Assembly (NCBI GenBank): GCA_005883075.1
Contig: VBAX01000049.1
Coordinates: 7,064-71,063 of the forward strand
DNA length: 64,000 nt
DNA from: Candidatus Bathyarchaeota archaeon
Lineage (GTDB): Archaea; Thermoproteota; Bathyarchaeia; 40CM-2-53-6
Reading direction: 5' to 3'
Positions 1,939 to 63,994 of the stretch are shown here, in pieces. A model generated the notes under the pieces. The model was not told where the DNA came from. It searched no databases and saw nothing but the letters and a program-made list of their open reading frames with translations. Numbering within the stretch: the stretch's first letter is position 1; each line of letters opens with the position of its first letter. The position numbers and the translations under genes are program-made.

Positions 1939-2526
1939 ATGAAGAAGTCGTTGGACCCGGCGGATACCATCCTTCGAGAAATTGAGGCGATCGGTAAACG
2001 CTCGTTTATCCCCTCCATTGGCCCCGTGAAGGGAAAGATCCTCGCGGAGATCTTGAAAGAGACAAGACCGAAACGAATTCTAGAGGTCGGAGCTCTTTAC
2101 GGATATTCCGCCATACTGATGGCCAAGAACTCACCCCCTAAAACTGAGATCATCTCGGTCGAGAAGAACCCTGAACATGTACGTATAGCCATGGAGAACA
2201 TCAGACGTGCCAACATGGAAGGGAGGATCAGGGTGGTTGAGGGAGATGGAAGGACAGAACTAGGGAAGCTCTCGGGAATCTTCGATCTAATCTTCTTGGA
2301 CGCTGAGAAGACACAATACTTCGCATATCTGAAGGCTGTAGAAAAGAATCTTCACAAGGGCAGCGTCATCGTCGCAGACAACGTGGGCATATTCAAGGAC
2401 CAGATGCAAGACTATCTAGAATATGTTAGAAAAAAGGGTCCCTACAAGAGCAGGACACTGGAAACCCTCTTGGAATTCTCAGACAGTACGAAAGACGCTA
2501 TGGAGATAAGCGAGAAACTAGCCTAG
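1939..2526 (+). CDS. O-methyltransferase, catechol-OMT-like (family 3)
   Basis: 195-aa ORF with ILEVGALYGYSAILMA (SAM motif), DLIFLDAEKTQY and VIVADNV. Confidence 0.8.
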   Translation: MKKSLDPADTILREIEAIGKRSFIPSIGPVKGKILAEILKETRPKRILEVGALYGYSAILMAKNSPPKTEIISVEKNPEHVRIAMENIRRANMEGRIRVVEGDGRTELGKLSGIFDLIFLDAEKTQYFAYLKAVEKNLHKGSVIVADNVGIFKDQMQDYLEYVRKKGPYKSRTLETLLEFSDSTKDAMEISEKLA

Positions 2527-2806
2527 AGGACCAGGAATTGGTGAGGAGCTAACGGGATTCCTCTTCTCATTCAGCTGGGCGTTATTCATCGTATTTGAAA
2601 AAGTGACCTTGCGGATGCCATGGCCACTCAAACATTTTCTGATCGGACAGTTCCCGGGCGAGTTTGAAGCACAACGTCAAGTCATGACAGTTAGAAGCGA
2701 AAAAGCGTCAAGATGAACGAGTTAGATCCTCAAGGACCCCATCTGCTAATCGGAGCTGATCGTCTCGATAGAAAGCAATAAGTCATTTCACTTGCGGTGG
2801 TAGCGC

Positions 2807-3997
2807 GTGAAGCTCGACAAATCCCCGATCAGGATGGAGTTTCTTAGGAAGAAGCTGAAGTGGATTCAGCAGGCGATGAGAGAGGAGGAGGTAGACATCT
2901 GGATCACTTTTACACGGGAGGGAAACGAGGATCCGCTTGCTCAGGATCTGAGGTTTGGCGATCTAACCTGGCGTTCCGCTGCAATTATCGACCACGATGG
3001 AACGAAGACAGCAGTTGTGGGCAGTCTAGAAGTCGAAACGATCAAGCAGAACAAGTTCTACGACGATGTCGTCGGGTACGCGAGCGAGGGCGCGGCTCCC
3101 AAGTTGAAACAGATCATCGCGAAAAGAAAGCCGAAGACCATTGCAATCAACACAAGTTACGACGAGGGTGCCGCAGACGGTCTAACGAGCGGAATGGAGA
3201 TGTATCTCAAACGGGCTCTGAAGGGATATTCCAAACGGTTCGTTTCTGGGGAGGACTTGGCTATTGCTCTTCGTGCGAGGCTCGTCCCGGAAGAAGTTGA
3301 ACTGGTAAAGAAGGCGATTGTCGAATGCGAAAAAATCTACGATGAAGTTGAGGATGCTATTAAACCCGGTAAGAAGGACAAGTATGTTCACCAGTTCGCT
3401 CACAAGCTTGTCGCTGAAAAGGGTCTATCGACAGCGTGGGCTTATGACCGCTGTCCCTCTGTGAATGTTGCCGGCAATCCCATGGGACACATAGGCTACC
3501 ACAACACAACCATCAGGAACGGTGATTTTGTCAAGCTAGACTTCGGAGTCAACTATGAAGGCTACTGCAGCGACATCCAACGAGTCTATTTCGTTGGGCC
3601 CGGAAACATTCCGAACTCGGTGAAGCGGATGTTCGAGACCGCAAGGGCTGCAAACGATGCCGCTCTCGTGACACTAAAGCCGGGAACGATAGGATACAAA
3701 GTCGATGGCGCTGGCAGAAAAGTAATCGTCAAGAGAGGCTATCCCGAATACAAGCATGCCCTGGGACATGTTCTGGGCCGGAGTACCCATGAGATCGGCC
3801 CTCTCCTAGGTCCAAGGTGGCCGAATAGATACGGCAAAAAGGTGGAGAAGCCGGTTCAGAAAGACATGGTCTTCACGATCGAACCCTCAGTCACAAGCAA
3901 GCTTGGAACGTGCAATCTGGAGCAAGATGTCTTGGTTACAGCGAACGGCTACGAACAACTCTCTAAGCCACAGGAAGAGATAATCAGGGTGGGATAA
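2807..3997 (+). CDS. M24 family metallopeptidase (Xaa-Pro aminopeptidase/creatinase-like)
   Basis: 396-aa ORF with GTG start. Pita-bread fold ligand pattern: DFGVNYEGYCSDIQR, HALGHVLGRSTHE, FTIEPS, LEQDV. Confidence 0.85.
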   Translation: MKLDKSPIRMEFLRKKLKWIQQAMREEEVDIWITFTREGNEDPLAQDLRFGDLTWRSAAIIDHDGTKTAVVGSLEVETIKQNKFYDDVVGYASEGAAPKLKQIIAKRKPKTIAINTSYDEGAADGLTSGMEMYLKRALKGYSKRFVSGEDLAIALRARLVPEEVELVKKAIVECEKIYDEVEDAIKPGKKDKYVHQFAHKLVAEKGLSTAWAYDRCPSVNVAGNPMGHIGYHNTTIRNGDFVKLDFGVNYEGYCSDIQRVYFVGPGNIPNSVKRMFETARAANDAALVTLKPGTIGYKVDGAGRKVIVKRGYPEYKHALGHVLGRSTHEIGPLLGPRWPNRYGKKVEKPVQKDMVFTIEPSVTSKLGTCNLEQDVLVTANGYEQLSKPQEEIIRVG

Positions 3998-10219: not shown

Positions 10220-11987
10220 TTGACCGACGAAACCGAAAACAACAATCACGAGACAACGACGAGGAGAAGGGTTTCAAGACGAGACTTTCTCAAGTACGGC
10301 GCAGGCGTGGCAGCTGTAGCCGCCGGAGCCAGCGGCTTACTGGGGAAAATCCCGTCCCTCCCATCACTTACAACGCCCACTTCGATCCACCAAGTCCCGC
10401 CCGACCCAGGCATCGAGGAGGTTACCATAGCACAACTTGAAGCACAATATGCGGCCGGAACATTAACCGCAACCTCCGTCGTGAACATGTACGAGACCCG
10501 GATTAGTGCTCTCGACCAGAGTGGCCCGAGGCTCAACTCGCTTCTTCAAGTGAACCCAGACGCATTGACAATAGCCCACCAGCTCGATGCACAAACCCTT
10601 CCGTTCCCTGGGATACTGCATGGCATACCCATCCTCTTGAAAGATAACATCGATACACACGACCAAATGCAGACAGCAGCAGGCTCACTAGCCCTGGTCG
10701 GGACGCCCGCCCTACAGGATTCAACCATTGCTGCACACCTACGTGCCGCAGGCGCAATAATCTTAGGCAAAACCAATTTGAGCGAGTGGGCAAACTTCCG
10801 CTCGTTCTTCTCATCCAGCGGCTGGTCCGGCCGCGGGGGCCAGTGCAACAACCCCTACGCGATCGACCGCAACCCGTGCGGCTCCAGTTCGGGATCCGGG
10901 GCGGCCGCTTCCGGAAACCTGACCACTGTTTCCATCGGAACTGAGACCGACGGTAGCATCGTCTGCCCAGCGAACGCTAACGGAGTCGTAGGCATCAAAC
11001 CAACTGTTGGCCTTGTTAGCCGAGCCGGCGTCATTCCCATCTCGCACACACAGGACACTGTCGGACCCCACGCTCGAACAGTTGCCGACGCAGCAACCGT
11101 ATTGACCGCTATTGTGCAGAGAACTCCCGACCCGCGCGACCCTGCTACCAGCACTAGCCCGCTCGGCATGCTCGGCCAACCAAGACCTGTTCTGCCGGCT
11201 GACTATCGGGCATTCTTGAACCCCAAAGGCCTCCGGGGCGCCAGAATAGGAGTTGTTCGAGACTTCGAAGGGTTCAGCCCCCATGCCGATGCAATCTTCG
11301 ACTCAGCAGTTACCGCGATTGGGAGTGCGGGAGCGACCCTGATAGACCCGGTATCCTTCCCGCACCTTGCCGATATCAACAGCGGCCTTGCAGAGTTCAC
11401 AGTGCTTCTCTTCGACTTCAAGATAGACATCGCAAACTATCTCAAGACCCGAACAGGCGTACCTATCGCCAGCCCAACCCTTCAAGCCCTAATCGACTTC
11501 AACAACGCCAACGCCACCCAAGAGATGCCATTCTTCGCACAGGAAATATTCGATCTGGCAAACATGTTCAGTTCGGACCCGAACGCCATACAACCCCTCG
11601 GCTTGTCATACAACGACTCGCTAGCCATTGACCAGAAGATTGGAGCGACTAATCGCAGGGACCGACAGCCCAGCATGGCCCACGGACCTAATCAATGGGG
11701 ACCATTTCACGTTCGGAACCTCGTCGCCGTGTGCTATCGCAGGCTATCCTATCATCAACGTCCCAGCGGGCATGAGCTTCGGCGTCCCAGTCGGCATCTC
11801 TTTCATGGGCACCGCTTTCAGCGAACCCACACTCATCAAGCTCGCCTCAGGCTTCGAAGCCGTCACACAGGCACGGCAGAAGCCACAGTTCCTGCAGACC
11901 CTACCGTTCAGCGGCCCATCACCGTTCAAAGTGAGAGGACGCGGACTCCTTCCGAAAAGAAATACCCCACTAGTCAGCGGACTTTAA
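10220..11987 (+). pseudogene. amidase-signature family amidase with twin-arginine signal, disrupted by a +1 frameshift near 11625-11645
   Basis: The N-terminus has RRRVSRRDFLKYGAGVAAVAAGA (Tat motif). The AS signature is CGSSSGSGAAAS, with GTETDGSIVCPA. After about residue 470 the 613-aa frame becomes Arg/His/Pro-rich nonsense. The conserved C-terminus (PAWPTDLINGDHF..SSPCAIAGYPIINVPAG..GVPVGISFMGTAFSEPTLIKLA) lies in the +1 frame, ORF 11628..11987. Confidence 0.8.
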
Positions 11988-12149
11988 CCACTCGTTCACC
12001 AACCCCTTTTTTCTATTGCCAACCAGCGGAGCTCATCGAGACTATCCAGTCATCGGCATAACTTCTCTGCTCGCTTCCAAACAGACGCGTCGAAGTGGAG
12101 AGAGCTGATATAGTCCGGACATGGATCTCTCTGAAAGAGTCGTGAGCAA

Positions 12150-12494
12150 TTGTTCTCCGAGAAAGAATTGGCCTACCTGAAATCTCAGCCACTGGCTAGA
12201 ATCGGGACCTCGTCCAAATCCGGAAGGCCGGATGTTGCCGCGGTCAGCTTCGACACCGACGGCGACTATATCTACGTGAGCGGCCGGGACGTCACGAACA
12301 CCATGAAGTACAAGAATGTCCTGGAGAACCCTAGAGCCTCGTTCGTTGTTGACGATCTGAAGACGATGAAACCTTGGGCTCCGCGGGGGATTAAGTTACA
12401 AGGAAAAGCTGACATCGTCAAGCATACTGGGTACATGGGTCCTGGAACTTACATTCGAATAAAGCCTGTGAATAAACGAAGCTGGAATATCTAG
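12150..12494 (+). CDS. PPOX-class (pyridoxamine 5'-phosphate oxidase-like, probably F420/FMN-binding) protein
   Basis: 114-aa ORF with TTG start: LAYLKSQPLARIGTSSKSGRPDVAAVSF..DGDYIYVSG..KYKNVLENPRASFVVDD, the split-barrel PPOX pattern. Confidence 0.75.
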   Translation: MFSEKELAYLKSQPLARIGTSSKSGRPDVAAVSFDTDGDYIYVSGRDVTNTMKYKNVLENPRASFVVDDLKTMKPWAPRGIKLQGKADIVKHTGYMGPGTYIRIKPVNKRSWNI

Positions 12495-12607
12495 CAGCTC
12501 GTTCTCAATTTTCCAACATGGCGTGCAGACTGCGAGTGTGAGATTCCAGTCTTGATAAGCTGAAAGAGAAGAAAAACGAGGGGATTTCTTGGGGTTCGTC
12601 TGTGCTC

Positions 12608-14503
12608 TTATGCGAGGCTGACTGAGCCTATTTCTAGGAGGTCTGAGAGACTGTTCATTTGGACCTTGTTGTTTGAGATGGTGTATAGCACATTTCCAAT
12701 GTAAAGCGTTTTGGTGATGAAGAGGTTGTTGTCTTGCCACGTCGGTAGTTGGCCGTTTTGCAGGTGTGTAATTCCGCCCTTGAAGATGATGCCGTTGTCC
12801 GGTGTGATGTTGAAGACATAGGCTCCTTGCCAGACCGGCTGGTACGAGTACAAGTACGTTGTATCTTGGGGTTGTGCGGTTATCTCGACTGGAATCACGA
12901 GGAGGCTGAGTGTCTTGTCGAAGAGGACTGCTTTGTGGTCGTTGATTGCCGGTGAGCTTGTTCCGGGACCGCCGATCAAGTATCTGCTAGTCTCCGTTGG
13001 CTGTTTGGGGTCTGTGACATTGAAGAGGCTGATCTTGAGACCTGTGAACCGGACCGCATTCTCCCATGCTACATCAGTGCCCGCCTGGCCGATGCCGACA
13101 AGATGCATCTCATCGTACGGTTGTAGGTAATCTGAGACGCCTGTTACGTCGAGCTGGCCGAGCACCGCGGGCCGAAAGGGGTCTTGTAGAGCGATGACAA
13201 AGAGCGGGTCCGTCCGCTTGTATGTAACAAGGTAGGCTTTGTCGCCCACGAACCGAGCAGAATAGATCTGCTCGCCTGGCGATAGCCCCTCTAGCTTTCC
13301 GGTACTGTGGAGGCTCCTGTCGAGAACATACACGTTTGTCTCCTGCTGGCTGACTGGCGCGTGTGCGAGTGGCATGGGACCGCCGCTCTGGCTACAGCAG
13401 TAGGTCGTTGCAATCCGAAGATATCCGTTGTACTCGTCCATGGAGAACTGGTTGAGAACGTGTCCGGGTACCGCTCCCGTAGCCTGATAGGTGATCGCGA
13501 GACCGTCGATGCTGATACGGTGCAATATCGTCTGCTGGCTCTGGCTCCATATCGGCTGTGTGAGATAGATGTCGTGCAGAGAAACATAGATTGTGCTCGT
13601 GGTTCCGATCAGATAGATCTTCGCGGAAGGACTGGGGTTGTTCCGTGTCGTGTCGAATCCTACGATGGTTGTGAAGCTGTAGCCTTGGTCGACAACGTCC
13701 GAGTGATAGACTTGTGTGGGCGTGGCCTTTACCACTTGGCCATTGACGATTTGCTCTGGGAGCAATATCTTGCCGTAGCAGAAGACTGGCTGTGTTGTGA
13801 CAAGGTAGACGTCGTTTCCGATTAGACGAGCACCGGCCAAGGTCCCGTTTACGTCAACCCTTGTTGTGATCATCGGGTTGGCGTGGTTGCTGATGTCAAA
13901 TACGAAGAGTGTGGTGGTCCCTGAGAATTGAATAGGGTATATCTTCGCAATGTTGCCGGGTTGAGAAGCACCTGTGCCTAGTGCAGGAAGCGGTGCGCCT
14001 CCGCTATAGTACGGATATGAGTATCCTGAAATCTCGCTTACGATGACAAGCCTGTTGCCGACCACAAATATTCCTTGCAAAGTCCCACTAACACTTACTC
14101 TGGAGAGAAGTCTGGCATCTGTTGCCGGATAAATTTGGACGATGGCGACGGTGTTGTTTGTTATCGTGTAGATATACTGGCCGTCGTTCTTGACATTGTC
14201 GAGTTCATCAACGCCAGACACCTGCTGATTCGTTTCAGAATGGGTGGGACTTTGGCTTGAAGCACTGTTCGAATTGGCGCCGAAGACTGATGTTGTTGGG
14301 CCGGGAGTAAGAGCGCCCCGATTGTAGAGCACAGGGGTCGAGCTACTGCAGCCGCTCGTGCGAATGAATGCTTGAACGTCTTGGTATGAGGTGAACGGGA
14401 TCAGCGCATGGGCTGTCGGAGTTGTGAGGTAGACTGAGACTGGGATGAGGGTGAGGCTGCTGAGGATGAGTAGGTATGCCACTGTTGCTCTGCGGGGTAT
14501 CAT
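12608..14503 (-). CDS. secreted beta-propeller domain protein (Pfam Beta_propel-like)
   Basis: 631-aa ORF with an N-terminal signal/TM (VAYLLILSSLTLIPVSVYL). The hallmark QQVSGVDELDNVKNDGQYIYTITNNTVAIVQ is followed by repeated beta-rich blades. Confidence 0.75.
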   Translation of the reverse strand: MIPRRATVAYLLILSSLTLIPVSVYLTTPTAHALIPFTSYQDVQAFIRTSGCSSSTPVLYNRGALTPGPTTSVFGANSNSASSQSPTHSETNQQVSGVDELDNVKNDGQYIYTITNNTVAIVQIYPATDARLLSRVSVSGTLQGIFVVGNRLVIVSEISGYSYPYYSGGAPLPALGTGASQPGNIAKIYPIQFSGTTTLFVFDISNHANPMITTRVDVNGTLAGARLIGNDVYLVTTQPVFCYGKILLPEQIVNGQVVKATPTQVYHSDVVDQGYSFTTIVGFDTTRNNPSPSAKIYLIGTTSTIYVSLHDIYLTQPIWSQSQQTILHRISIDGLAITYQATGAVPGHVLNQFSMDEYNGYLRIATTYCCSQSGGPMPLAHAPVSQQETNVYVLDRSLHSTGKLEGLSPGEQIYSARFVGDKAYLVTYKRTDPLFVIALQDPFRPAVLGQLDVTGVSDYLQPYDEMHLVGIGQAGTDVAWENAVRFTGLKISLFNVTDPKQPTETSRYLIGGPGTSSPAINDHKAVLFDKTLSLLVIPVEITAQPQDTTYLYSYQPVWQGAYVFNITPDNGIIFKGGITHLQNGQLPTWQDNNLFITKTLYIGNVLYTISNNKVQMNSLSDLLEIGSVSLA

Positions 14504-17881: not shown

Positions 17882-20800
17882 CTAGGCGAAATCTCCCACC
17901 AAGAGCTTTGTCTGCGTCCGGTCTTCCTCAGCTGATCGGAACGTCTCGTCCAGTTCAACTTTGATCAGGTCAAGTCTCTGTCGGTAGTAATCGCCGACAC
18001 TGTACCGTTTGACCATATCAAAGGCAACTTGGAGATATTTCTCGACCCCTGCTTTGAATACGGTAGGTCCCAACTTGCCTCCGCATTTCACGCAGACTCC
18101 TTTCAAGGGTGCTCGGCGTGGTTTCCAATTGCACTTTGAGCATCGACATCTCTGCGACGTGAACGTTCGCAAGTTCCCTACCAAATCTCGTAGAATATGG
18201 GTTCCGAGGACTTTCCTAGCAACTTCTTCTCCTCTCACCGCCACGATCTTGTCCGCAAGATCGAGTTGCTCCTTGACTTTATCCAGCATCGTCGGTAGTT
18301 CCTTGTACGCGCTAGTCAATCGCGCGCGGTCTAGGTCTTCCGTAGGGTGGGTAAACCCGATGTTCCAGTTGCCCGACAAAGATTCCCGGGCGTTGTTCAG
18401 GGTCGGGACGAGGTCCTCGACTTCCTTGGGGCTCGCTCCGACTAGTGTTTTCTCGTAGAAAGCGAGGGGGAAAGTGGTGAGTGTTTCGATGTTGAACGCT
18501 TGTCGTGCGACTTCGGTCGCGTTTAGTAGTGGAGCGAGCAACAGCGGGGCGTCCATCAAACCACCAATCCTATCTGGAAGGTATTCTCTAGAGAAGTTCA
18601 ACAGTACATCGAGCAATAGCGATACCGAGTCCTCGTCTCCATCGCAGTCTCGCCGTTTTGCAGCGTGGTATAGGGGATGGGCATAGCAGACGCTCGCTTT
18701 GGTGAATCCGACGATTCTTGCCACTGCGCCAACGGATGTATGAGGCGATAACCCGACGACCAGATGCCCGATTAGGTCTTCCTTTTTCGATGCCTTGTAG
18801 AGCTTGTCCATTCCGTAGTACGAGTTGAGCAGGTCGTCTAGGAACCTGGTTACTTTCAACAGGTACTCGCCGCAAGCTTCCGAGACGACAAGGTCCTGTA
18901 TCTCCAGAGCGCACAACTGTCTCGGGTCCGAGAGCCCGTGACCGTCCATGTCCATGGTGTACCCTATCTCGCGGGCTTTCTCCAGGCTCAGCCCGATTTC
19001 CCCTGGTCTGAACTGGGTTAGTACAGCGTTTGACGCGTCAAACCGTAAGGTCCCGTCTTTGAACACTGAGACATCTGATTTCGCCCGTAACAATGCCTTC
19101 TCTAGGGGCTCGGGCATTCGGGTTTTGTTGATCAAACCTTTCACTCCTTTCACCGATCCTTCCATTTTTCCCAGCTTGAGCCTTCCAACTGCCTCTTCCA
19201 GCATTTCGACCAGGTTTACGTTGACGCTCCGATAGGCGACGAGGGAACCATTACAAGTGGATGACGAATCGTGCGATGTTTGGCCGCACTTGGGACAGTT
19301 CGTACTCATCTTCGTCTCTCGTCCACAGACTGGACACCTGAGTTTCGATTCCCAGCGACCGCATTGCAGACATGATCGATCCACCAGGCCCAACGCTACC
19401 ACGGATTTCCTCGATGCCTCTATCAAGTCACGGCGTGGGCCACCGGCTTGACCCGTTGGAAATAGCCCGTGGACCCGTGGAGTCATGATCCTCTCCTTCG
19501 CTTTTTCTGGGCGTCCCATGCGTGCCCCGACAAAGATCGGCGCCTTGTTCTTTATTGGAAATCCTGCTAGCAAGCTCAGAGCTTCCAGCGAGCTTTGTCC
19601 CTTGACCTGACTTGATGGAACTTCGAGATTCAGAATCGTCCGAAGAACCAGAGCATCATCGTCTCGGAGCTGGATGGCACCCGCCACCATCTTATGCGGC
19701 ATTCGAGCTTGCTCAAGAATGTCCTTCAACTTCTCATCGTAGGGTAGAACGCACGAGTCGTCGAGGTAGTGGATGAGTTTCTCGCGGAGATAGTGTACGT
19801 CTTGGATCGTCACGAGGCTCCAGAAGTAGGTGTAGGCTGGGTGTAGAGGAATTCCGAGTCTCTGGGATAATTCAATTGCCTCGCTGGCTCGCGGTTTGAC
19901 CGAGAACGGGTTGTTAGCGAATTCCCGCAATCGTTCCGGTGAGATATTCAGCAATTGTTGCGCTTTGTTGCTGTTTTCCGGGTCGCGGAGTCTCTCCTCC
20001 AGCAACTGTGCCCACCACGACTCGACAAACCCCGACGGGACAAGCGCTCGATTGTTTTCGAGAAATTCCCCGTATCCTACCATCAGGTCGCCGAGAAACA
20101 GTATCTTCTGAATCTTGTCTCGCAGTGCCTTTGCTTCTTGAGGCGAGTCTACCCTCATCACAGAGCCATCGACGAGCTTCACGACAGGAGGCTCGATGCT
20201 GTCGACCGCATTGACGATCCCAGCCTTCCCTGGCCTTTCCAGTCTCATCTGGACGCCTACCGCAAGAAATCCACCCAGAATTTCCATGGTAGCTGGGTGA
20301 ACACCGACCGATGCCATGCCAGTGTTTCGTGAGCGGCCGTATCGTATTCTGAAACCTCCGGCTGCTCCGGGGAAGGCGAATATTGGGCGTCCGCCGACAA
20401 CGTCTTCCATGAACATGAATTCTTTCGCCTCTTCTCCTTCTGATGACGAGGTCTTCATCATAGCCAACCACCCCCAGCCTTCCAATCCTAGCTTCTCAAC
20501 GATCTTCAGAACCTTGGTTGATCGTCCGAGCAATCCATCATTTACAACTCGTAATGCTCCGCCTCTGACTCTGTTCGTCTCGATCCGCATCAGATTCCGG
20601 TTGACCGCTACTTCGACGGGGTCTGTTTCCACGCCGTTCGGCTCAACGGTCAGGCGCATGATCGCGTCTTTGAGTACGCTGTCCGGGTTCCGGTATTGAA
20701 AGCGGGCGATGGATCGTTCGTAGAGGCGTAGTTCTTCGACGAATCTCATCGCTTCCTGTTCAGACGCGTGATACGGGGGAATGTTCAGTTGCCGACGGAC

Positions 20801-21334
20801 GTAATCGGCAACAATCATCGTCAAACCCATCTCTGTCCCGCCGGCCGATCGCATCGGGCCAGCGAAGTATACGGCTAGGTGCTTTGATCCATCTACGTTT
20901 GTTCGGATCTTGACATCGTGGATTCCCTGTATCGGCGCCACGGTTACCGCCTCATCCAACACTGCTAGCGCCGTACGAACCGCTTGCTCAGCAGCATCCT
21001 CGGGCTCAAGGCTCCCGAAATGGCCCAGAACAATGTCCTCGCTGATTTTCAGCGCTGTTTCTTCGCGCGAGACTAGTTTGCTCAACTCTCGGATTCTAGC
21101 CGCAACCCCGCCTGGTCCAACCGATTTCTCAACTCGCTCAGCTAGATCATAGGTTGTCTGTGATTCGACTTTCCATGAAGGGTCGAGTCCTTTCGACCGG
21201 GCCTCCGAGGCTATCGCGTACTGCCGGTTGTATTCTTCCTCTAATCTCTTCGCATAAACATGGTTTGGCCGGTTCTCTAGGACTTGCACAGCGAGCCTTC
21301 GACTACCCGCCACCGTAAAAGGATTAATGATCAA
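17882..21334 (-). CDS. polC: DNA polymerase D (Pol II) large subunit DP2
   Basis: 1150-aa ORF with DP2-typical length and N-terminus (YAKRLEEEYNRQYAIASEARSKGLDP). It has Cys clusters CLQCGRWESKLRCPVCG..CPKCG and CSKCNWKPRRAPLKGVCVKCGG, and the catalytic region HAAKRRDCDGDEDS. No intein is apparent. Confidence 0.95.
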   Translation of the reverse strand: MIINPFTVAGSRRLAVQVLENRPNHVYAKRLEEEYNRQYAIASEARSKGLDPSWKVESQTTYDLAERVEKSVGPGGVAARIRELSKLVSREETALKISEDIVLGHFGSLEPEDAAEQAVRTALAVLDEAVTVAPIQGIHDVKIRTNVDGSKHLAVYFAGPMRSAGGTEMGLTMIVADYVRRQLNIPPYHASEQEAMRFVEELRLYERSIARFQYRNPDSVLKDAIMRLTVEPNGVETDPVEVAVNRNLMRIETNRVRGGALRVVNDGLLGRSTKVLKIVEKLGLEGWGWLAMMKTSSSEGEEAKEFMFMEDVVGGRPIFAFPGAAGGFRIRYGRSRNTGMASVGVHPATMEILGGFLAVGVQMRLERPGKAGIVNAVDSIEPPVVKLVDGSVMRVDSPQEAKALRDKIQKILFLGDLMVGYGEFLENNRALVPSGFVESWWAQLLEERLRDPENSNKAQQLLNISPERLREFANNPFSVKPRASEAIELSQRLGIPLHPAYTYFWSLVTIQDVHYLREKLIHYLDDSCVLPYDEKLKDILEQARMPHKMVAGAIQLRDDDALVLRTILNLEVPSSQVKGQSSLEALSLLAGFPIKNKAPIFVGARMGRPEKAKERIMTPRVHGLFPTGQAGGPRRDLIEASRKSVVALGLVDRSCLQCGRWESKLRCPVCGRETKMSTNCPKCGQTSHDSSSTCNGSLVAYRSVNVNLVEMLEEAVGRLKLGKMEGSVKGVKGLINKTRMPEPLEKALLRAKSDVSVFKDGTLRFDASNAVLTQFRPGEIGLSLEKAREIGYTMDMDGHGLSDPRQLCALEIQDLVVSEACGEYLLKVTRFLDDLLNSYYGMDKLYKASKKEDLIGHLVVGLSPHTSVGAVARIVGFTKASVCYAHPLYHAAKRRDCDGDEDSVSLLLDVLLNFSREYLPDRIGGLMDAPLLLAPLLNATEVARQAFNIETLTTFPLAFYEKTLVGASPKEVEDLVPTLNNARESLSGNWNIGFTHPTEDLDRARLTSAYKELPTMLDKVKEQLDLADKIVAVRGEEVARKVLGTHILRDLVGNLRTFTSQRCRCSKCNWKPRRAPLKGVCVKCGGKLGPTVFKAGVEKYLQVAFDMVKRYSVGDYYRQRLDLIKVELDETFRSAEEDRTQTKLLVGDFA

Positions 21335-34942: not shown

Positions 34943-35135
34943 GGCTGGGGGTTCACGTGTATGGTTTTTTGGCTGCTAGAGCATGCTCTAGTCTGAGCGT
35001 TTGTGGGGACCGGTCGCGGCGGAATTAAACGTTTTTCCAGTGCTCTTGATCGAGACGCGGTTTGTGTGGATGCGGGGAAAGCCAATTAGGGCCTTGCATC
35101 TGCTCCGTTGCGTTGCGGGCAGGGACTTGGTATTG

Positions 35136-35250
35136 CGGGAGTTGCCAAGCCAGGTCAAAGAGACCCTTTGATTCGAGGGTCGTGGAAGCGCAGGCCTGAG
35201 GCGCCTGTCCCGTAGGGGTTCGTGGGTTCGAATCCCACCTCCCGCACCAA
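35136..35250 (+). tRNA. tRNA-Leu(GAG), class II, with a 27-nt intron in the D-arm and encoded CCA
   Basis: Hand fold: acceptor GCGGGAG/CTCCCGC, discriminator A, CCA encoded. D-arm GCC-AAGCCAGGTCAAA-G|GC is completed only after removing 35162..35188. Anticodon arm is CAGGC-CTGAGGC-GCCTG (anticodon 35199..35201). Long variable arm is TCCCGTAGGGGTTC and T-arm is GTGGG-TTCGAAT-CCCAC. Confidence 0.85.
35162..35188 (+). other. putative tRNA-Leu intron (non-canonical position, D-arm)
   Basis: AGACCCTTTGATTCGAGGGTCGTGGAA contains the hairpin GACCC/GGGTC. Removing it restores the D-stem and the normal 85-nt class II length. Boundaries are inferred from tRNA architecture, not from a verified BHB fold. 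Confidence 0.65.
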
Positions 35251-60387: not shown

Positions 60388-60596
60388 CCCACACCTAGGA
60401 ACGAAATAATGGGCTGGATAGAGCAACGTCGCTGATCGACTGATCGCACCAGAACCTCGGACGCTAAGAATGGAAGAGGCGAACAAATTTGCTCGACGAA
60501 AACCAGGAGGGCAACTCCTGCCGCATCTGAAACGGACAACTATTTTGGCGCCGGGAGTGGGATTTGAACCCACGCGGCCCGCAAGGACCACAGGCT

Positions 60597-60611
60597 AACA
60601 GGAGCCTATTT
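60597..60611 (-). other. putative tRNA-Ser intron 2 (canonical 37/38 position)
   Basis: AAATAGGCTCCTGTT (15 nt) follows CTGGAA of the anticodon loop. Removing it gives the 7-nt loop CTGGAAA closed by TAGGC/GCCTG. Confidence 0.55.
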
Positions 60612-60622
60612 TTCCAGGCCTA

Positions 60623-60644
60623 GGCCCACGTTTCTAGTGGACTG
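60623..60644 (-). other. putative tRNA-Ser intron 1 (non-canonical, between D-arm and anticodon stem)
   Basis: CAGTCCACTAGAAACGTGGGCC (21-22 nt) contains the hairpin GTCCAC/GTGGGC. Boundaries are +/-1-2 nt and are inferred from tRNA architecture only. Confidence 0.55.
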
Positions 60645-60726
60645 CCCTGTACCAGGCTCAGGAATCCCGGCCCAGTCTTGTTCTTGGCCGTGGGAGTATT
60701 TTCCCCTTTTGACAGACACAAAAAAA

Positions 60727-60969: not shown

Positions 60970-61839
60970 ATGGAACGCTGCGCCGTCTGCGGGGCGGAAG
61001 AATTCATCCCCTACATATGCAGATACTGCGACCGCGTCCACTGCGTCCTCCACAGACTCCCCGAAAACCATGAGTGCCCCAACATCCAACAAGCACGAGC
61101 GCCGAAGCCTATTATCCGGGTCGAAGGACGCCAGAGCGGAGCGACCCTCAGAGTGATTCGCGCTCCAAGGTTGTCGACGATCTCTAATCGTGAGTTAACA
61201 GCTCTTCTTACGGCGTTAATGGTTCTTGGAATTAGTTTCTCAACGAGATACATGTTCTCCGGTTTGGTCGCTGCAAGTCCCGTAGCGTTTCTCGAGGTAT
61301 TTCTTCTAACACTCATAGTGATAGGAACAGGATTCATAGGACATGAATTGGCCCACAAATTCGTGGCTCAGAGATTTGGATGTTGGGCTGAGTTCAAACT
61401 ATGGACGGTTGGGGCTGTTATGGCTGTTCTTTTCGCGTTTGTCCCACCTGGAAACCTTGTCTTTGCTGCTCCAGGCGCTGTTTACATCGCATCAAGATCC
61501 AGCTATTTCGGTGAAGGAGTAGATAGGAAGGCGAACGGTGTAATTTCCCTCGTAGGTCCACTGGTTAACATTGGTGCAGCGGGACTCTTTGGGCTGGCAT
61601 TTCTGATCAGTTCACTTGCAGGCCTTGGCGATATCGTCATTAGCTCAGGCTCCGGGCTGGCTTTCAAGTTCCTGCAGGAGGGTGTGGCCATCAATCTTTG
61701 GCTAGGGGCATTCAACATGATACCGTTTTTCATACTCGACGGGCAGAAAGTTTTCACATGGGACCGTAGGGTTTGGGCCGCAGTCGCGATTCCGCTCTGG
61801 GCGGCTACCATAGCAATCTGGGTGCTACTTTTCGTCTGA
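60970..61839 (+). CDS. AN1-type zinc finger fused to M50 (site-2 protease) family metalloprotease
   Basis: 289-aa ORF. The AN1 finger is CAVCGAEEFIPYICRYCDRVHCVLHRLPENHEC. The TM domain has HELAHKFVAQRFG (HExxH) and FNMIPFFILDGQKV (the N..P...LDG motif of M50). Confidence 0.85.
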   Translation: MERCAVCGAEEFIPYICRYCDRVHCVLHRLPENHECPNIQQARAPKPIIRVEGRQSGATLRVIRAPRLSTISNRELTALLTALMVLGISFSTRYMFSGLVAASPVAFLEVFLLTLIVIGTGFIGHELAHKFVAQRFGCWAEFKLWTVGAVMAVLFAFVPPGNLVFAAPGAVYIASRSSYFGEGVDRKANGVISLVGPLVNIGAAGLFGLAFLISSLAGLGDIVISSGSGLAFKFLQEGVAINLWLGAFNMIPFFILDGQKVFTWDRRVWAAVAIPLWAATIAIWVLLFV

Positions 61840-61994: not shown

Positions 61995-63037
61995 TCAATT
62001 CAACTGGCTTACCACGGGACGACTATGCTTCGGTTTCCAGAGCTTGGGATATGCGTCGGTGGGCATGATCACCCTAACTGTCTTCGCGGCAAGCCCTCGT
62101 TCATCCTTCATCATCTGCTCTGTTCCCATGAGTGCTCTTGATAACCCGACGAGTTCTCCTTTGAGCGTGAAAACTGCGATCGCAGTCTTGGGACGTATTC
62201 CCTCAGTTAGCTTGACTATCCCTGGAATAGCAAGGTCAGCGCCGTGGCATATTGAACTGACCGCGGAGTCACGAATGTAGATTCGCGGAACATAGTCAAA
62301 AGCGGCCTCCATAGGCCTAACGATTTGCCGGACCATCTCTTCCCTCTCGCTCGGGGAAGCTTGAGAAAGTTTGAAGACATCGTAGAGAGAGTGGATGCCC
62401 TTTTCAGTAAAAGATCCAGATCTTGTTCTTCGGAGCTCTCGCATGTGCGCGCCTACTTCGAGAACTTCCCCGACATCGTAGACAAGTTTCCGGATGTAAG
62501 TTCCCGCTTGACAAGCGACACGGAAGAGAACTTGTCGTCCATCAACTTCCACTTCATCGATCGAGTAGATTGTTCTTTTCCGTACTTCCCTCTTGACCGC
62601 AGCTCTCACAGGAGGCTTCTGAAATATGTCACCGACAAACTCCTCCAGTACACCGCGGAGTCTTGTCTCATCGACGTCGCCGTGCATCGTCATTAGGCAG
62701 ACGTACTCCTTCCCGGTGAGGAGGAATACCTGGATCGTCTTCGTAGCGTCTTCGAGAGCTAGCGGAAGAACACCGGTGACCATTGGATTACTCCGGCCCC
62801 GAACCGGACCTCTAGAGTTCCACCGTGGCCAGCGTGGCGCAACCGCAGGAGACGTTTGACCCATGCAACGACTTCGTGGCTTGACGGACCTGAAGGCTTG
62901 TCCAGGTTGATCAAGCCGAATCTGATGTGCTGATCAATCGTCCTTTTCTCTGGCGGACACCCTAAAGCCGGGTCCGTCTCGTCATCGAGTTTGATGAGCA
63001 GTTTCTGTGACTTATTCCAGGGAGCCTGTTGTGACAT
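61995..63037 (-). CDS. cbf5: H/ACA RNP pseudouridine synthase Cbf5, interrupted by a 23-nt insert (exon 1 63037..62811, exon 2 62787..61995)
   Basis: Track ORFs 62759..63037 and 61995..62864 carry the N- and C-parts. Joined after removing 62788..62810, they give 339 codons with [49 protein letters not shown] and a C-terminal PUA domain ([15 protein letters not shown]). Confidence 0.9.
62788..62810 (-). other. putative mRNA intron in cbf5 (splicing-endonuclease type)
   Basis: Minus-strand GGTCCGGTTCGGGGCCGGAGTAA. Its length is not a multiple of 3. Excision fuses GA|T into GAT (Asp) within GTLDP. It contains the stem TCCGG/CCGGA. The boundary can slide 1 nt without changing the product. Confidence 0.7.
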
Positions 63038-63153: not shown

Positions 63154-63450
63154 CTACGCTGCCACGCTTATCTCTTTGATTGTGACGATCTCTTTCAGGT
63201 AGTTCGTCTTCTTCGCCTTTTCCGCTACCTTGGCGACATCCTCGTCAGCTGCACCCTTCTTGATCTCGATGGTTTCCGCAGTCGGTTCCACATGTTTAAC
63301 ATTGGTTCGGCGGCGACGGACTCCGTTCACTTTCTTCGGTCCAGTAATTAGAACAAAGTTCTTGTCGATGACGTCGACTATGACGCATTTGTGGCCGGCT
63401 TCCCGTCCGTTGAGTTTGACGCAGACGCGTCCGACTTCGATTGTTGGCAC
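63154..63450 (-). CDS. rpl14e: 50S ribosomal protein L14e (eL14)
   Basis: 98-aa ORF with MPTIEVGRVCVKLNGREAGHKCVIVDVIDKNFVLITGPKKVNGVRRRRTNVKHVEPT. Confidence 0.9.
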   Translation of the reverse strand: MPTIEVGRVCVKLNGREAGHKCVIVDVIDKNFVLITGPKKVNGVRRRRTNVKHVEPTAETIEIKKGAADEDVAKVAEKAKKTNYLKEIVTIKEISVAA

Positions 63451-63571: not shown

Positions 63572-63994
63572 CTAGTGCTTGAGAGTTGGACGCGACCTTG
63601 CGACTATCTCTCTCGCGGCCATAACCTGGCGCGGATACTCCTTACCTCTTCCCGATAGTCTCTTGTCCGCCTTGTGGGCCTCCAGCTTCGATGTAATGTA
63701 GTTGACAGCCTTGTGTATGTCGAATTGCTTGCAGCTGAAAATGTCCATGAACGCATGCTTGTTGTCTGGGAAGGTATGAATACTGATGTGGCTCTCTGCA
63801 ATGATCACGAAGCCACTGATCCCCCACTCTGTCGGATTCCCCTTCGGTTTGTACACGAATACGTACGGCGCGGTGATCTTGTGCATGTCGATCACATCCG
63901 GAAGCTCGTCTAGGAGATCGTAGATGTAAGAAAGGTCAGAGAGCCTTTCAGGATTACACTCTGACAAATCCAGTGTAAGATGAGGTCCGAACAT
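63572..63994 (-). CDS. speH: pyruvoyl-dependent S-adenosylmethionine decarboxylase proenzyme (SpeH type; the arginine-decarboxylase paralogue cannot be excluded)
   Basis: 140-aa ORF with FGPHLTLDLSECN and the self-processing site ISGFVIIAE|SHISIHTFPD, then AFMDIFSC. Confidence 0.85.
   Translation of the reverse strand: MFGPHLTLDLSECNPERLSDLSYIYDLLDELPDVIDMHKITAPYVFVYKPKGNPTEWGISGFVIIAESHISIHTFPDNKHAFMDIFSCKQFDIHKAVNYITSKLEAHKADKRLSGRGKEYPRQVMAAREIVARSRPTLKH

Follow-up and report, generated by a model that had tools for sequence, protein, structure and literature searches.

How a gene can specify an active enzyme when its catalytic codon is broken is the question raised by a locus in a 64,000-nucleotide (nt) stretch of contig VBAX01000049.1 (assembly GCA_005883075.1, Candidatus Bathyarchaeota archaeon), which was analyzed as a whole and is referred to here as the window. 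On its minus strand, the cbf5 gene is interrupted by 23 nt inside the codon of the catalytic Asp. A previous sequence-only reading proposed that these 23 nt are an intron cut out by the splicing endonuclease. Introns in the protein-coding genes of archaea are almost unknown, and the cbf5 type has previously been described for two hot-spring crenarchaeal orders only. Judged from the sequence comparisons described below, the insert is very probably a bulge-helix-bulge (BHB) intron of the archaeal type, carried by the cbf5 pre-mRNA and removed by splicing. All coordinates follow the window numbering, and helices and bulges of the minus-strand cbf5 gene are written 5' to 3' as RNA.

A 23-nt insert divides the catalytic Asp codon of cbf5

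Two minus-strand open reading frames (ORFs) each carry a part of the gene. The ORF at 63037..62759 (92 amino acids) reads as Cbf5 up to ...AGHGGTL and then runs through 17 unrelated codons to a TAG, and the ORF at 62864..61995 (289 amino acids) is Cbf5-like only from PMVTGVLP on. The start of the latter is exon 1 in the wrong frame, before exon 2 is reached; this out-of-frame leader has also been called as protein in relatives (P0032 and P0043). The catalytic Asp is present in neither of the two separate ORFs. Deletion of the 23 nt creates a 1020-nt ORF of 339 codons plus the stop codon, in which the motif GHGGTL-D-PMVTG is restored. The ORF layout and the restored motif confirm the earlier claim that cbf5 is split inside its catalytic codon, and the two listed ORFs (61995-62864 and 62759-63037, minus strand) are by-products of the intron.

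The spliced Cbf5 of 339 amino acids contains DKCLD, TruB_N, TruB_C_2, and PUA matches, all above the Pfam cut-offs. Its residues 11 to 326 align with Pyrococcus abyssi Cbf5 (2AUS) with an E-value of 2e-111, and the alignment is gap-free across the junction. The single 339-codon frame with TruB and PUA parts, as previously read, is borne out by these domain matches and by the end-to-end alignment. Two deletions are equivalent, 62788-62810 (GA/T) and 62789-62811 (G/AT), and both produce the same mRNA. The sequence-only reading had placed the junction at GA/T; the mRNA that it predicted is unchanged, but the BHB cleavage rule assigns the boundaries to G/AT. The predicted spliced junction is ...GGAACTCTAG joined to ATCCAATGG....

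Both junctions are located in a relaxed BHB motif

The minimum-energy fold, computed on 62840..62760, and the RNAalifold consensus both place the two junctions in 3-nt bulges that are 4 bp apart (Table 1). A fold of this type had been anticipated, in a strict or a relaxed version, and the pairing suggests that the BHB of the window is of the relaxed kind. The inner helix of the window intron comprises 5 bp. In pre-tRNA, the 5' strand of the central helix is supplied by the exon, through bases of the anticodon loop, an arrangement captured in the hBHBh' model, reportedly that of Marck and Grosjean in 2003, and the window intron has the same polarity. Cuts after the second base of each bulge excise 62811..62789 and join ...CUAG to AUCCA..., which gives GAU. 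This position corresponds to the BHB cleavage rule, by which cleavage occurs between the second and third bulge residues, also for crenarchaeal cbf5 introns (PMC2738675). The TCCGG/CCGGA stem pointed out in the sequence-only reading is not a conserved pairing; the conserved pairings are GGUCC/GGGCC in the inner helix and CUCU/GGAG in the central helix.

Table 1. Features of the cbf5 locus and of the predicted BHB motif
Feature	Coordinates	Strand	Description
cbf5, whole gene	63037..61995	minus	interrupted by 23 nt inside the catalytic Asp codon
cbf5 exon 1	62812..63037	minus	ATG at 63037; 75 codons; DKCLD and start of TruB_N; ends ...AGHGGTL
Last base of exon 1	62812	minus	G of the catalytic Asp codon
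Predicted 23-nt BHB intron, AGGUCCGGUUCGGGGCCGGAGUA	62789..62811	minus	boundaries placed by the BHB cleavage rule
cbf5 exon 2	61995..62788	minus	AT of the Asp codon, PMVTGVLP..., rest of TruB_N, TruB_C_2, PUA
cbf5 stop codon	61995-61997	minus	end of exon 2
Central 4-bp helix, 5' strand CUCU	62814..62817	minus	exon bases; Thr-Leu codons ACU CUA
Central 4-bp helix, 3' strand GGAG	62791..62794	minus	intron bases
Bulge 1, AGA	62811..62813	minus	predicted 5' cut after the second base, 62812/62811
Bulge 2, UAA	62788..62790	minus	predicted 3' cut after the second base, 62789/62788
Inner helix, 5' strand GGUCC	62806..62810	minus	fold and consensus
Inner helix, 3' strand GGGCC	62795..62799	minus	fold and consensus
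Terminal loop GGUUCG (6 nt)	62800..62805	minus	freely variable across relatives
Outer helix, 5' strand UGGA	62819..62822	minus	Gly-Gly codons; RNAalifold consensus
Outer helix, 3' strand UCCA	62784..62787	minus	T of the Asp codon, Pro codon, first Met base
Unpaired A	62818	minus	between outer and central helices in the best register

Position, register, and pairing are conserved among relatives

A scan of one genome per GTDB species yielded 12 loci with 73-94% amino-acid identity. An insert occupies the corresponding position in all 12, with a length of 23 nt in eleven cases and 20 nt in the other. A further 80 loci came from a metagenome scan. Both flanking motifs could be located in 87 loci, and 62 of these 87 contain an insert of 18, 20, 21, 22, 23, 24, or 33 nt at the same phosphodiester. 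In every one of the 62, the central helix has four of four pairs, both bulges are 3 nt, the BHB register is identical, the inner helix is 2-6 bp, and cutting after bulge base 2 gives GAY. GAY is also restored in the loci L100 and L102-L106. The exon strand of the central helix follows synonymous codons (ACU CUA, ACC CUA, ACC CUU, or ACC UUA), and the intron strand changes to match it (GGAG, AGAG, GGGG, AGGG, or AAGG).

Covariation was measured in a loop-trimmed, gap-free alignment of 32 distinct sequences, which retains only three inner-helix pairs beside the central helix for equal row length. The central helix is paired in all 32 relatives, with double changes at two of its four pairs (U-A to C-G, with ACU/ACC). 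The inner helix is 99% paired and shows compensatory double changes at all three tested pairs. Double changes occur at 5-7 pairs, and the covariation score is 0.34-0.41, compared with 0.17-0.22 in shuffled alignments; none of 500 shuffles reached the observed value. In slid controls, in which the partner strand was shifted by 1-3 columns, pairing falls to 30-60% and the covariation score is at most 0.15. An independent RNAalifold run on the 23-nt introns arrived at this structure as well, and 7 of its 13 pairs have compensatory changes. Across the set, the outer helix is 85% paired in the shifted register versus 65% in the canonical one, and the strict motif, with a perfect canonical 4-bp outer helix, is found in 10 of the 32 relatives.

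Every intron whose length is divisible by 3 has an in-frame stop within 2-6 codons, and the insert is therefore never read as protein. The 23-nt insert is identical in four independent soil assemblies from different samples; the loci with the identical insert are L001 and L096-L099. Relative to the nearest relative, L002, the ratio of nonsynonymous to synonymous substitution rates (dN/dS) amounts to 0.12 in exon 1 and 0.08 in exon 2, values that indicate purifying selection on both exons. Against most of the remoter loci with an intron, dS has reached saturation, with dN at 0.09-0.43. A search of 5.8 billion proteins with the full-length spliced query found no intron-less gene above about 62% identity, and the intron is consequently regarded as fixed in the window's clade. 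The anatomy, register, conservation, and covariation of the insert, the selection on its exons, and its fixation in the clade are direct observations on these loci.

A proposed splicing pathway and competing explanations

By analogy with the known pathway, cleavage and ligation would proceed as follows, with EndA and RtcB as the probable enzymes. The gene would be transcribed as a single unit, in which the CUCU exon bases would find their partner in the GGAG at the intron's 3' end. EndA, the endonuclease of tRNA splicing, would then cut after the second base of each bulge. Ligation of ...CUAG to AUCCA... by RtcB, an RNA ligase, would restore GAU and the 339-codon frame. The unspliced mRNA would yield only a 92-amino-acid N-terminal fragment or an Asp-less C-terminal fragment, so that active Cbf5 would depend on splicing. 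The expected form of EndA is the heteromeric (alpha-beta)2 enzyme, which would accept relaxed motifs outside tRNA, because this form is reported to be widespread in the TACK superphylum (PMC5829648) and has been shown to cut relaxed non-tRNA motifs. Relaxed motifs reportedly need the (alpha-beta)2 or epsilon2 form (PMC5829648, PMC2738675). A regulatory role for the intron, such as coupling Cbf5 output to RNA-processing capacity or the negative regulation that Watanabe et al. proposed, is speculative.

Several observations weigh against splicing of the insert. In the canonical register, the outer helix of the window's clade consists of an A-U pair followed by an A.C mismatch, and a helix of 4 bp needs one unpaired A. 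The fold energy of the single sequence is unremarkable, with a minimum-free-energy z-score of -0.79, and loose BHB-like motifs occur in the window at chance level (about 104, compared with 73-110 in shuffles). Neither EndA nor RtcB was found among the 20 window ORFs scanned. Furthermore, in the collection searched, full-length and junction-centred queries retrieved no protein or cDNA that spans the junction with at least 85% identity; the best junction-spanning matches, P0356 and P0359 (75-78%), are from other, intron-less lineages. By our own arithmetic, the chance of a loose motif at one specific position-and-length combination is about 2e-5. The finding stands above chance because of its exact register and the repair of the frame and, chiefly, because of the conservation and covariation in relatives. 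The loose BHB motif was rejected both as evidence and as a means of finding further mRNA introns, in view of its chance-level frequency in the whole-window scan.

Three other explanations would account for the interrupted frame. The 23 nt could be a disabling insertion in a gene that is dead, or an assembly or sequencing artefact. The frame is indeed broken inside the catalytic codon, and Archaea can apparently live without Cbf5, as a cbf5-deleted Haloferax strain is reported in a passage of PMC5029457. A dead gene would, however, keep neither the protein nor the fold, whereas here both exons have a dN/dS of about 0.1, with dS saturated between most of the remoter lineages that carry the intron, and the RNA helices covary. 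The identical insert in four independent assemblies and its recurrence at the same phosphodiester in 62 diverged loci also contradict mis-assembly, which the sequence-only reading had named as a way in which it might be wrong. We consider this explanation exceedingly improbable. Slightly less remote, and still very unlikely, is a two-piece Cbf5, in which the 92-amino-acid ORF and a 262-amino-acid protein initiated at the ATG that follows Asp-Pro would be made separately and assemble into an active enzyme. Gene callers output exactly these two ORFs in hundreds of contigs, and the window's clade does have an ATG after the junction. The catalytic Asp, however, would be absent from both pieces, the exon-1 ORF ends in a meaningless tail that shows no conservation, and a covarying BHB would be purposeless. 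Many intron-bearing lineages have PKVTG, with no start codon at this place, and in L090 the first usable start would cost about 35 conserved residues. Intron-less relatives have DPM too, and the Met after Asp-Pro is therefore not an adaptation to the split; missing in many intron-bearing lineages and present in intron-less ones, it was rejected as an internal start.

The third explanation is ribosomal recoding, in which bypassing or frameshifting would skip the 23 nt with no RNA splicing. The bypassing of phage T4 gene 60 involves a hairpin, and a hairpin is likewise present in the cbf5 gap. The cbf5 gap, however, starts and ends within a codon (G/AT) and lacks matching take-off and landing codons, and its length varies from 12 to 33 nt over the loci compared. 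What is conserved is the BHB, with its two 3-nt bulges 4 bp apart and its exon-intron pairing, and not a bypass signal. Spliced cDNAs have moreover been sequenced for the homologous crenarchaeal inserts (PMC2738675), and recoding is scarcely credible here. Removal of the insert as a BHB intron is the explanation that we prefer. The proposal of a splicing-endonuclease intron, as first made from the window alone, is supported, and what such an intron predicts at the sequence level is borne out throughout, namely in the bulges, the GAT rule, the covariation, the selection on the exons, and the four assemblies.

The host lineage and the wider distribution of the intron

The 12 genome loci belong to metagenome-assembled genomes (MAGs) that carry the label Candidatus Bathyarchaeota or Bathyarchaeia; those from older soil records are named 'Crenarchaeota archaeon 13_1_40CM'. 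Soil MAGs of Candidatus Bathyarchaeota, with 86-94% amino-acid identity, are the closest genomes, and the host is a soil Bathyarchaeon. The ORF at 17882-21334 is DP2, the large subunit of PolD, as previously recognized. The placement of the intron in a lineage other than Crenarchaeota sensu stricto, which had been deduced from PolD, is supported by near-identical contigs labelled as Candidatus Bathyarchaeota soil MAGs.

A neighbour-joining tree of the spliced proteins, which is indicative only, unites the window's clade and its sister clade in a single intron-bearing group; the sister clade has introns of 21 nt and a neighbouring gene labelled Candidatus Bathyarchaeota. In the L034 clade, the neighbouring cytidylate kinase shares a 90%-identity cluster with a protein that bears the label Candidatus Bathyarchaeota. 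A second intron-bearing clade (L075, L084, L085, L087, L088, L090, and L092) is nested among intron-less sequences, as are the single intron-bearing loci L042 and L070, and the distribution is patchy. When cluster representatives at 50% identity were searched with the exon-2 ORF, approximately 10 of the best 150 matches started at or within about 10 residues of the exon 2 start.

The intron extends to a cultured organism. Tardisphaera, of the class Tardisphaeria in Thermoproteota, carries a 17-nt insert at the same cbf5 phosphodiester (L105; CP117708.1, at about 481,200; 1474-1494 in locus coordinates). It forms a canonical BHB, CCCU[UGA]GG-loop-CC GGGG[AAA], in which the outer helix comprises 4 bp. 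The RefSeq annotation truncates this Cbf5 to 249 amino acids, and the Tardisphaera genome paper does not mention the cbf5 insert. Even shorter introns are found at the same site in two loci whose Cbf5 is about 40-44% identical to that of the window. In L104 (Logan SRR22387874), a single inner pair separates the central helix of a 14-nt mini-intron from a 5-nt loop, and in L106 (ENA ERZ27237478 k141_602338), where the mini-intron is 12 nt, the 5-nt loop sits straight on the central helix. The outer helix is 4 bp long in the two loci. Both introns are shorter than any published cbf5 intron (16 bp), and such mini-introns of 12-14 nt, with no real inner helix, would define a minimal natural mRNA substrate for the splicing endonuclease.

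Two side observations were made next to these genes. A LAGLIDADG_3 homing-endonuclease-like ORF (2269-2955) is located directly downstream of the intron-bearing cbf5 of L106. In Tardisphaera L105, an epimerase/dehydratase gene adjoining cbf5 (2335-3750, minus strand) has a weak Intein_splicing Pfam match.

The cbf5 intron is fixed in a large clade of Bathyarchaeia and present in several further lineages. Full-text literature searches found no paper linking Bathyarchaeota or Tardisphaera with a cbf5 intron, and what is new here is a phylogenetic reach much wider than the searched literature reports. A published survey found no cbf5 intron in Thermoproteales, Cenarchaeum, Nitrosopumilus, or Korarchaeum (PMC2738675), and the published scenario is a single gain in the ancestor of the two thermophilic orders. 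An intron in abundant mesophilic soil Bathyarchaeia, other Bathyarchaeia-like clades, Tardisphaera, and two further lineages does not fit this scenario. Tentatively, and with somewhat more doubt than confidence, we suggest that the Asp-codon intron may be ancient in Thermoproteota/TACK, or possibly older, kept in Bathyarchaeia, Tardisphaeria, Sulfolobales, Desulfurococcales, and further lineages, with repeated losses in others. The data also allow repeated site-specific insertion of mini-introns at one phosphodiester. If the ancient origin is true, no older intron would be known from any protein-coding gene of prokaryotes, and the persistence of this one would imply a selected function, for example one that links Cbf5 production to how active the tRNA/rRNA splicing machinery is. 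As a cultured non-crenarchaeal host, Tardisphaera provides an experimental handle on splicing.

Effect on public annotation

The intron leaves a systematic trace in public protein sets. The truncated 262-amino-acid exon-2 product forms a cluster with 309 members, and the 78-amino-acid exon-1 product forms one with 108 members. Many of the truncated Cbf5 records are named 'H/ACA ribonucleoprotein complex subunit 4' or 'tRNA pseudouridine55 synthase'. The intron thereby causes Cbf5 to be split or truncated in hundreds of public records, which distorts marker-gene sets and functional inference.

Neighbouring genes and tRNA candidates

Upstream of cbf5, a ribosomal protein L14e-like gene is located at 63154-63450 (minus strand); its identity was assigned by resemblance to the gene upstream of cbf5 in all relatives. 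The other neighbours are an AdoMet decarboxylase gene at 63572-63994 (minus strand) and a gene for a zf-AN1/peptidase M50 membrane protein at 60970-61839 (plus strand). The gene order around cbf5 is the same in the four independent soil contigs, and more distant lineages have the order cmk, L14e, cbf5.

The sequence-only reading had also listed two intron-bearing tRNAs, which are plausible. ARAGORN reported no tRNA in the window by default and three with the -i option, one of which is probably false. At 35135-35249 (plus strand), an Rfam tRNA match spans 112 nt with 40.7 bits, and ARAGORN with introns allowed reads a tRNA-Gly(CCC) whose 38-nt intron precedes the anticodon instead of lying at 37/38; this is probably a non-canonical BHB intron. 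A tRNA-like gene of 126 nt at 60546-60671 (minus strand), 1.3 kb downstream of cbf5, is below the Rfam gathering threshold. In the ARAGORN -i reading, it is a tRNA-Pro(AGG) whose intron measures 31 nt and whose extra arm is too long to be plausible, and the gene may hold two introns. The third call, a 'tRNA-Val' with a 778-nt intron at 11968-12839 (minus strand), has weak stems and was set aside as a probable false positive.

Comparison with known systems

Two sets of loci permit a direct comparison with crenarchaeal introns. L100 was retrieved with a fragment of the S. solfataricus row of the alignment of Yokobori et al. as the query, and the HEVAYW and MQVHC signatures of the published alignment mark it as Sulfolobales-like; from sequence signatures, L102/L103 (GCA_015522635.1) would be Desulfurococcales-like. 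L100 has a 23-nt insert with the layout of the window, GGGA CCCU [AGA] GCCCC-loop-GGGGC GGGG [AGA] CCCC. L102/L103 has a 30-nt insert, CCCU [AGA] GGAA-loop-UUCC GGGG [AAA], with the same layout as the Bathyarchaeal loci. The bases that the window shares with these loci (GGGG/GGAG and the A-rich bulges) are forced by pairing with conserved exon codons, and the inner helices and loops have nothing in common.

The BHB introns of tRNA and rRNA, processed by EndA and RtcB, display the same succession of helix, 3-nt bulge, 4-bp helix, 3-nt bulge, and helix; the window motif differs in being located in a protein-coding mRNA that has no tRNA body. In HAC1/XBP1 mRNA, Ire1 cleaves stem-loops and tRNA ligase or RtcB joins the ends in a stress-regulated reaction. 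This system likewise combines a short mRNA intron, an endonuclease acting on stem-loops, a tRNA-type ligase, and a change of reading frame. It differs in using Ire1 instead of EndA, in having twin 7-nt loops instead of a BHB, and in its regulation by stress, and no evolutionary link is shown. A link between RtcB and XBP1 is mentioned in a passage of PMC8718801. The BHB intron of Haloferax volcanii HVO_1309 is likewise an mRNA substrate of the splicing endonuclease (PMC7714728), but it lies in a 5' untranslated region, whereas the window intron lies within a codon of the coding sequence. Besides this Haloferax intron of its own, the same 2020 paper names the crenarchaeal cbf5 intron as the sole reported BHB intron beyond tRNA and rRNA (PMC7714728).

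The closest counterparts are the crenarchaeal cbf5 introns of Sulfolobales and Desulfurococcales, published by Watanabe (2002), Yoshinari (2006), and Yokobori (2009; PMC2738675), which are 16-44 bp long and mostly have an unconventional BHB, and whose splicing has been confirmed by cDNA in several species (PMC2738675). The window intron is located in the same host gene and at the same G/AT junction, an agreement that emerged from the comparison of insert positions suggested by the sequence-only reading. The rule that places the cuts behind the second base of each 3-nt bulge applies to it equally, and it belongs to the same size class without an ORF (16-44 bp published, 23 nt in the window, and 12-33 nt over the loci compared). 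As in the window, the crenarchaeal BHB is often relaxed. The differences are that splicing has been demonstrated by cDNA in several Crenarchaeota and is predicted from DNA sequence in the window lineage, and that the window host is a PolD-bearing soil member of Bathyarchaeia, outside Sulfolobales and Desulfurococcales. In every structural respect that characterizes the crenarchaeal cbf5 family, the window intron appears to belong to it and departs from it only in taxonomy, and the taxonomic limit describes the sampling of these introns, not their mechanism.

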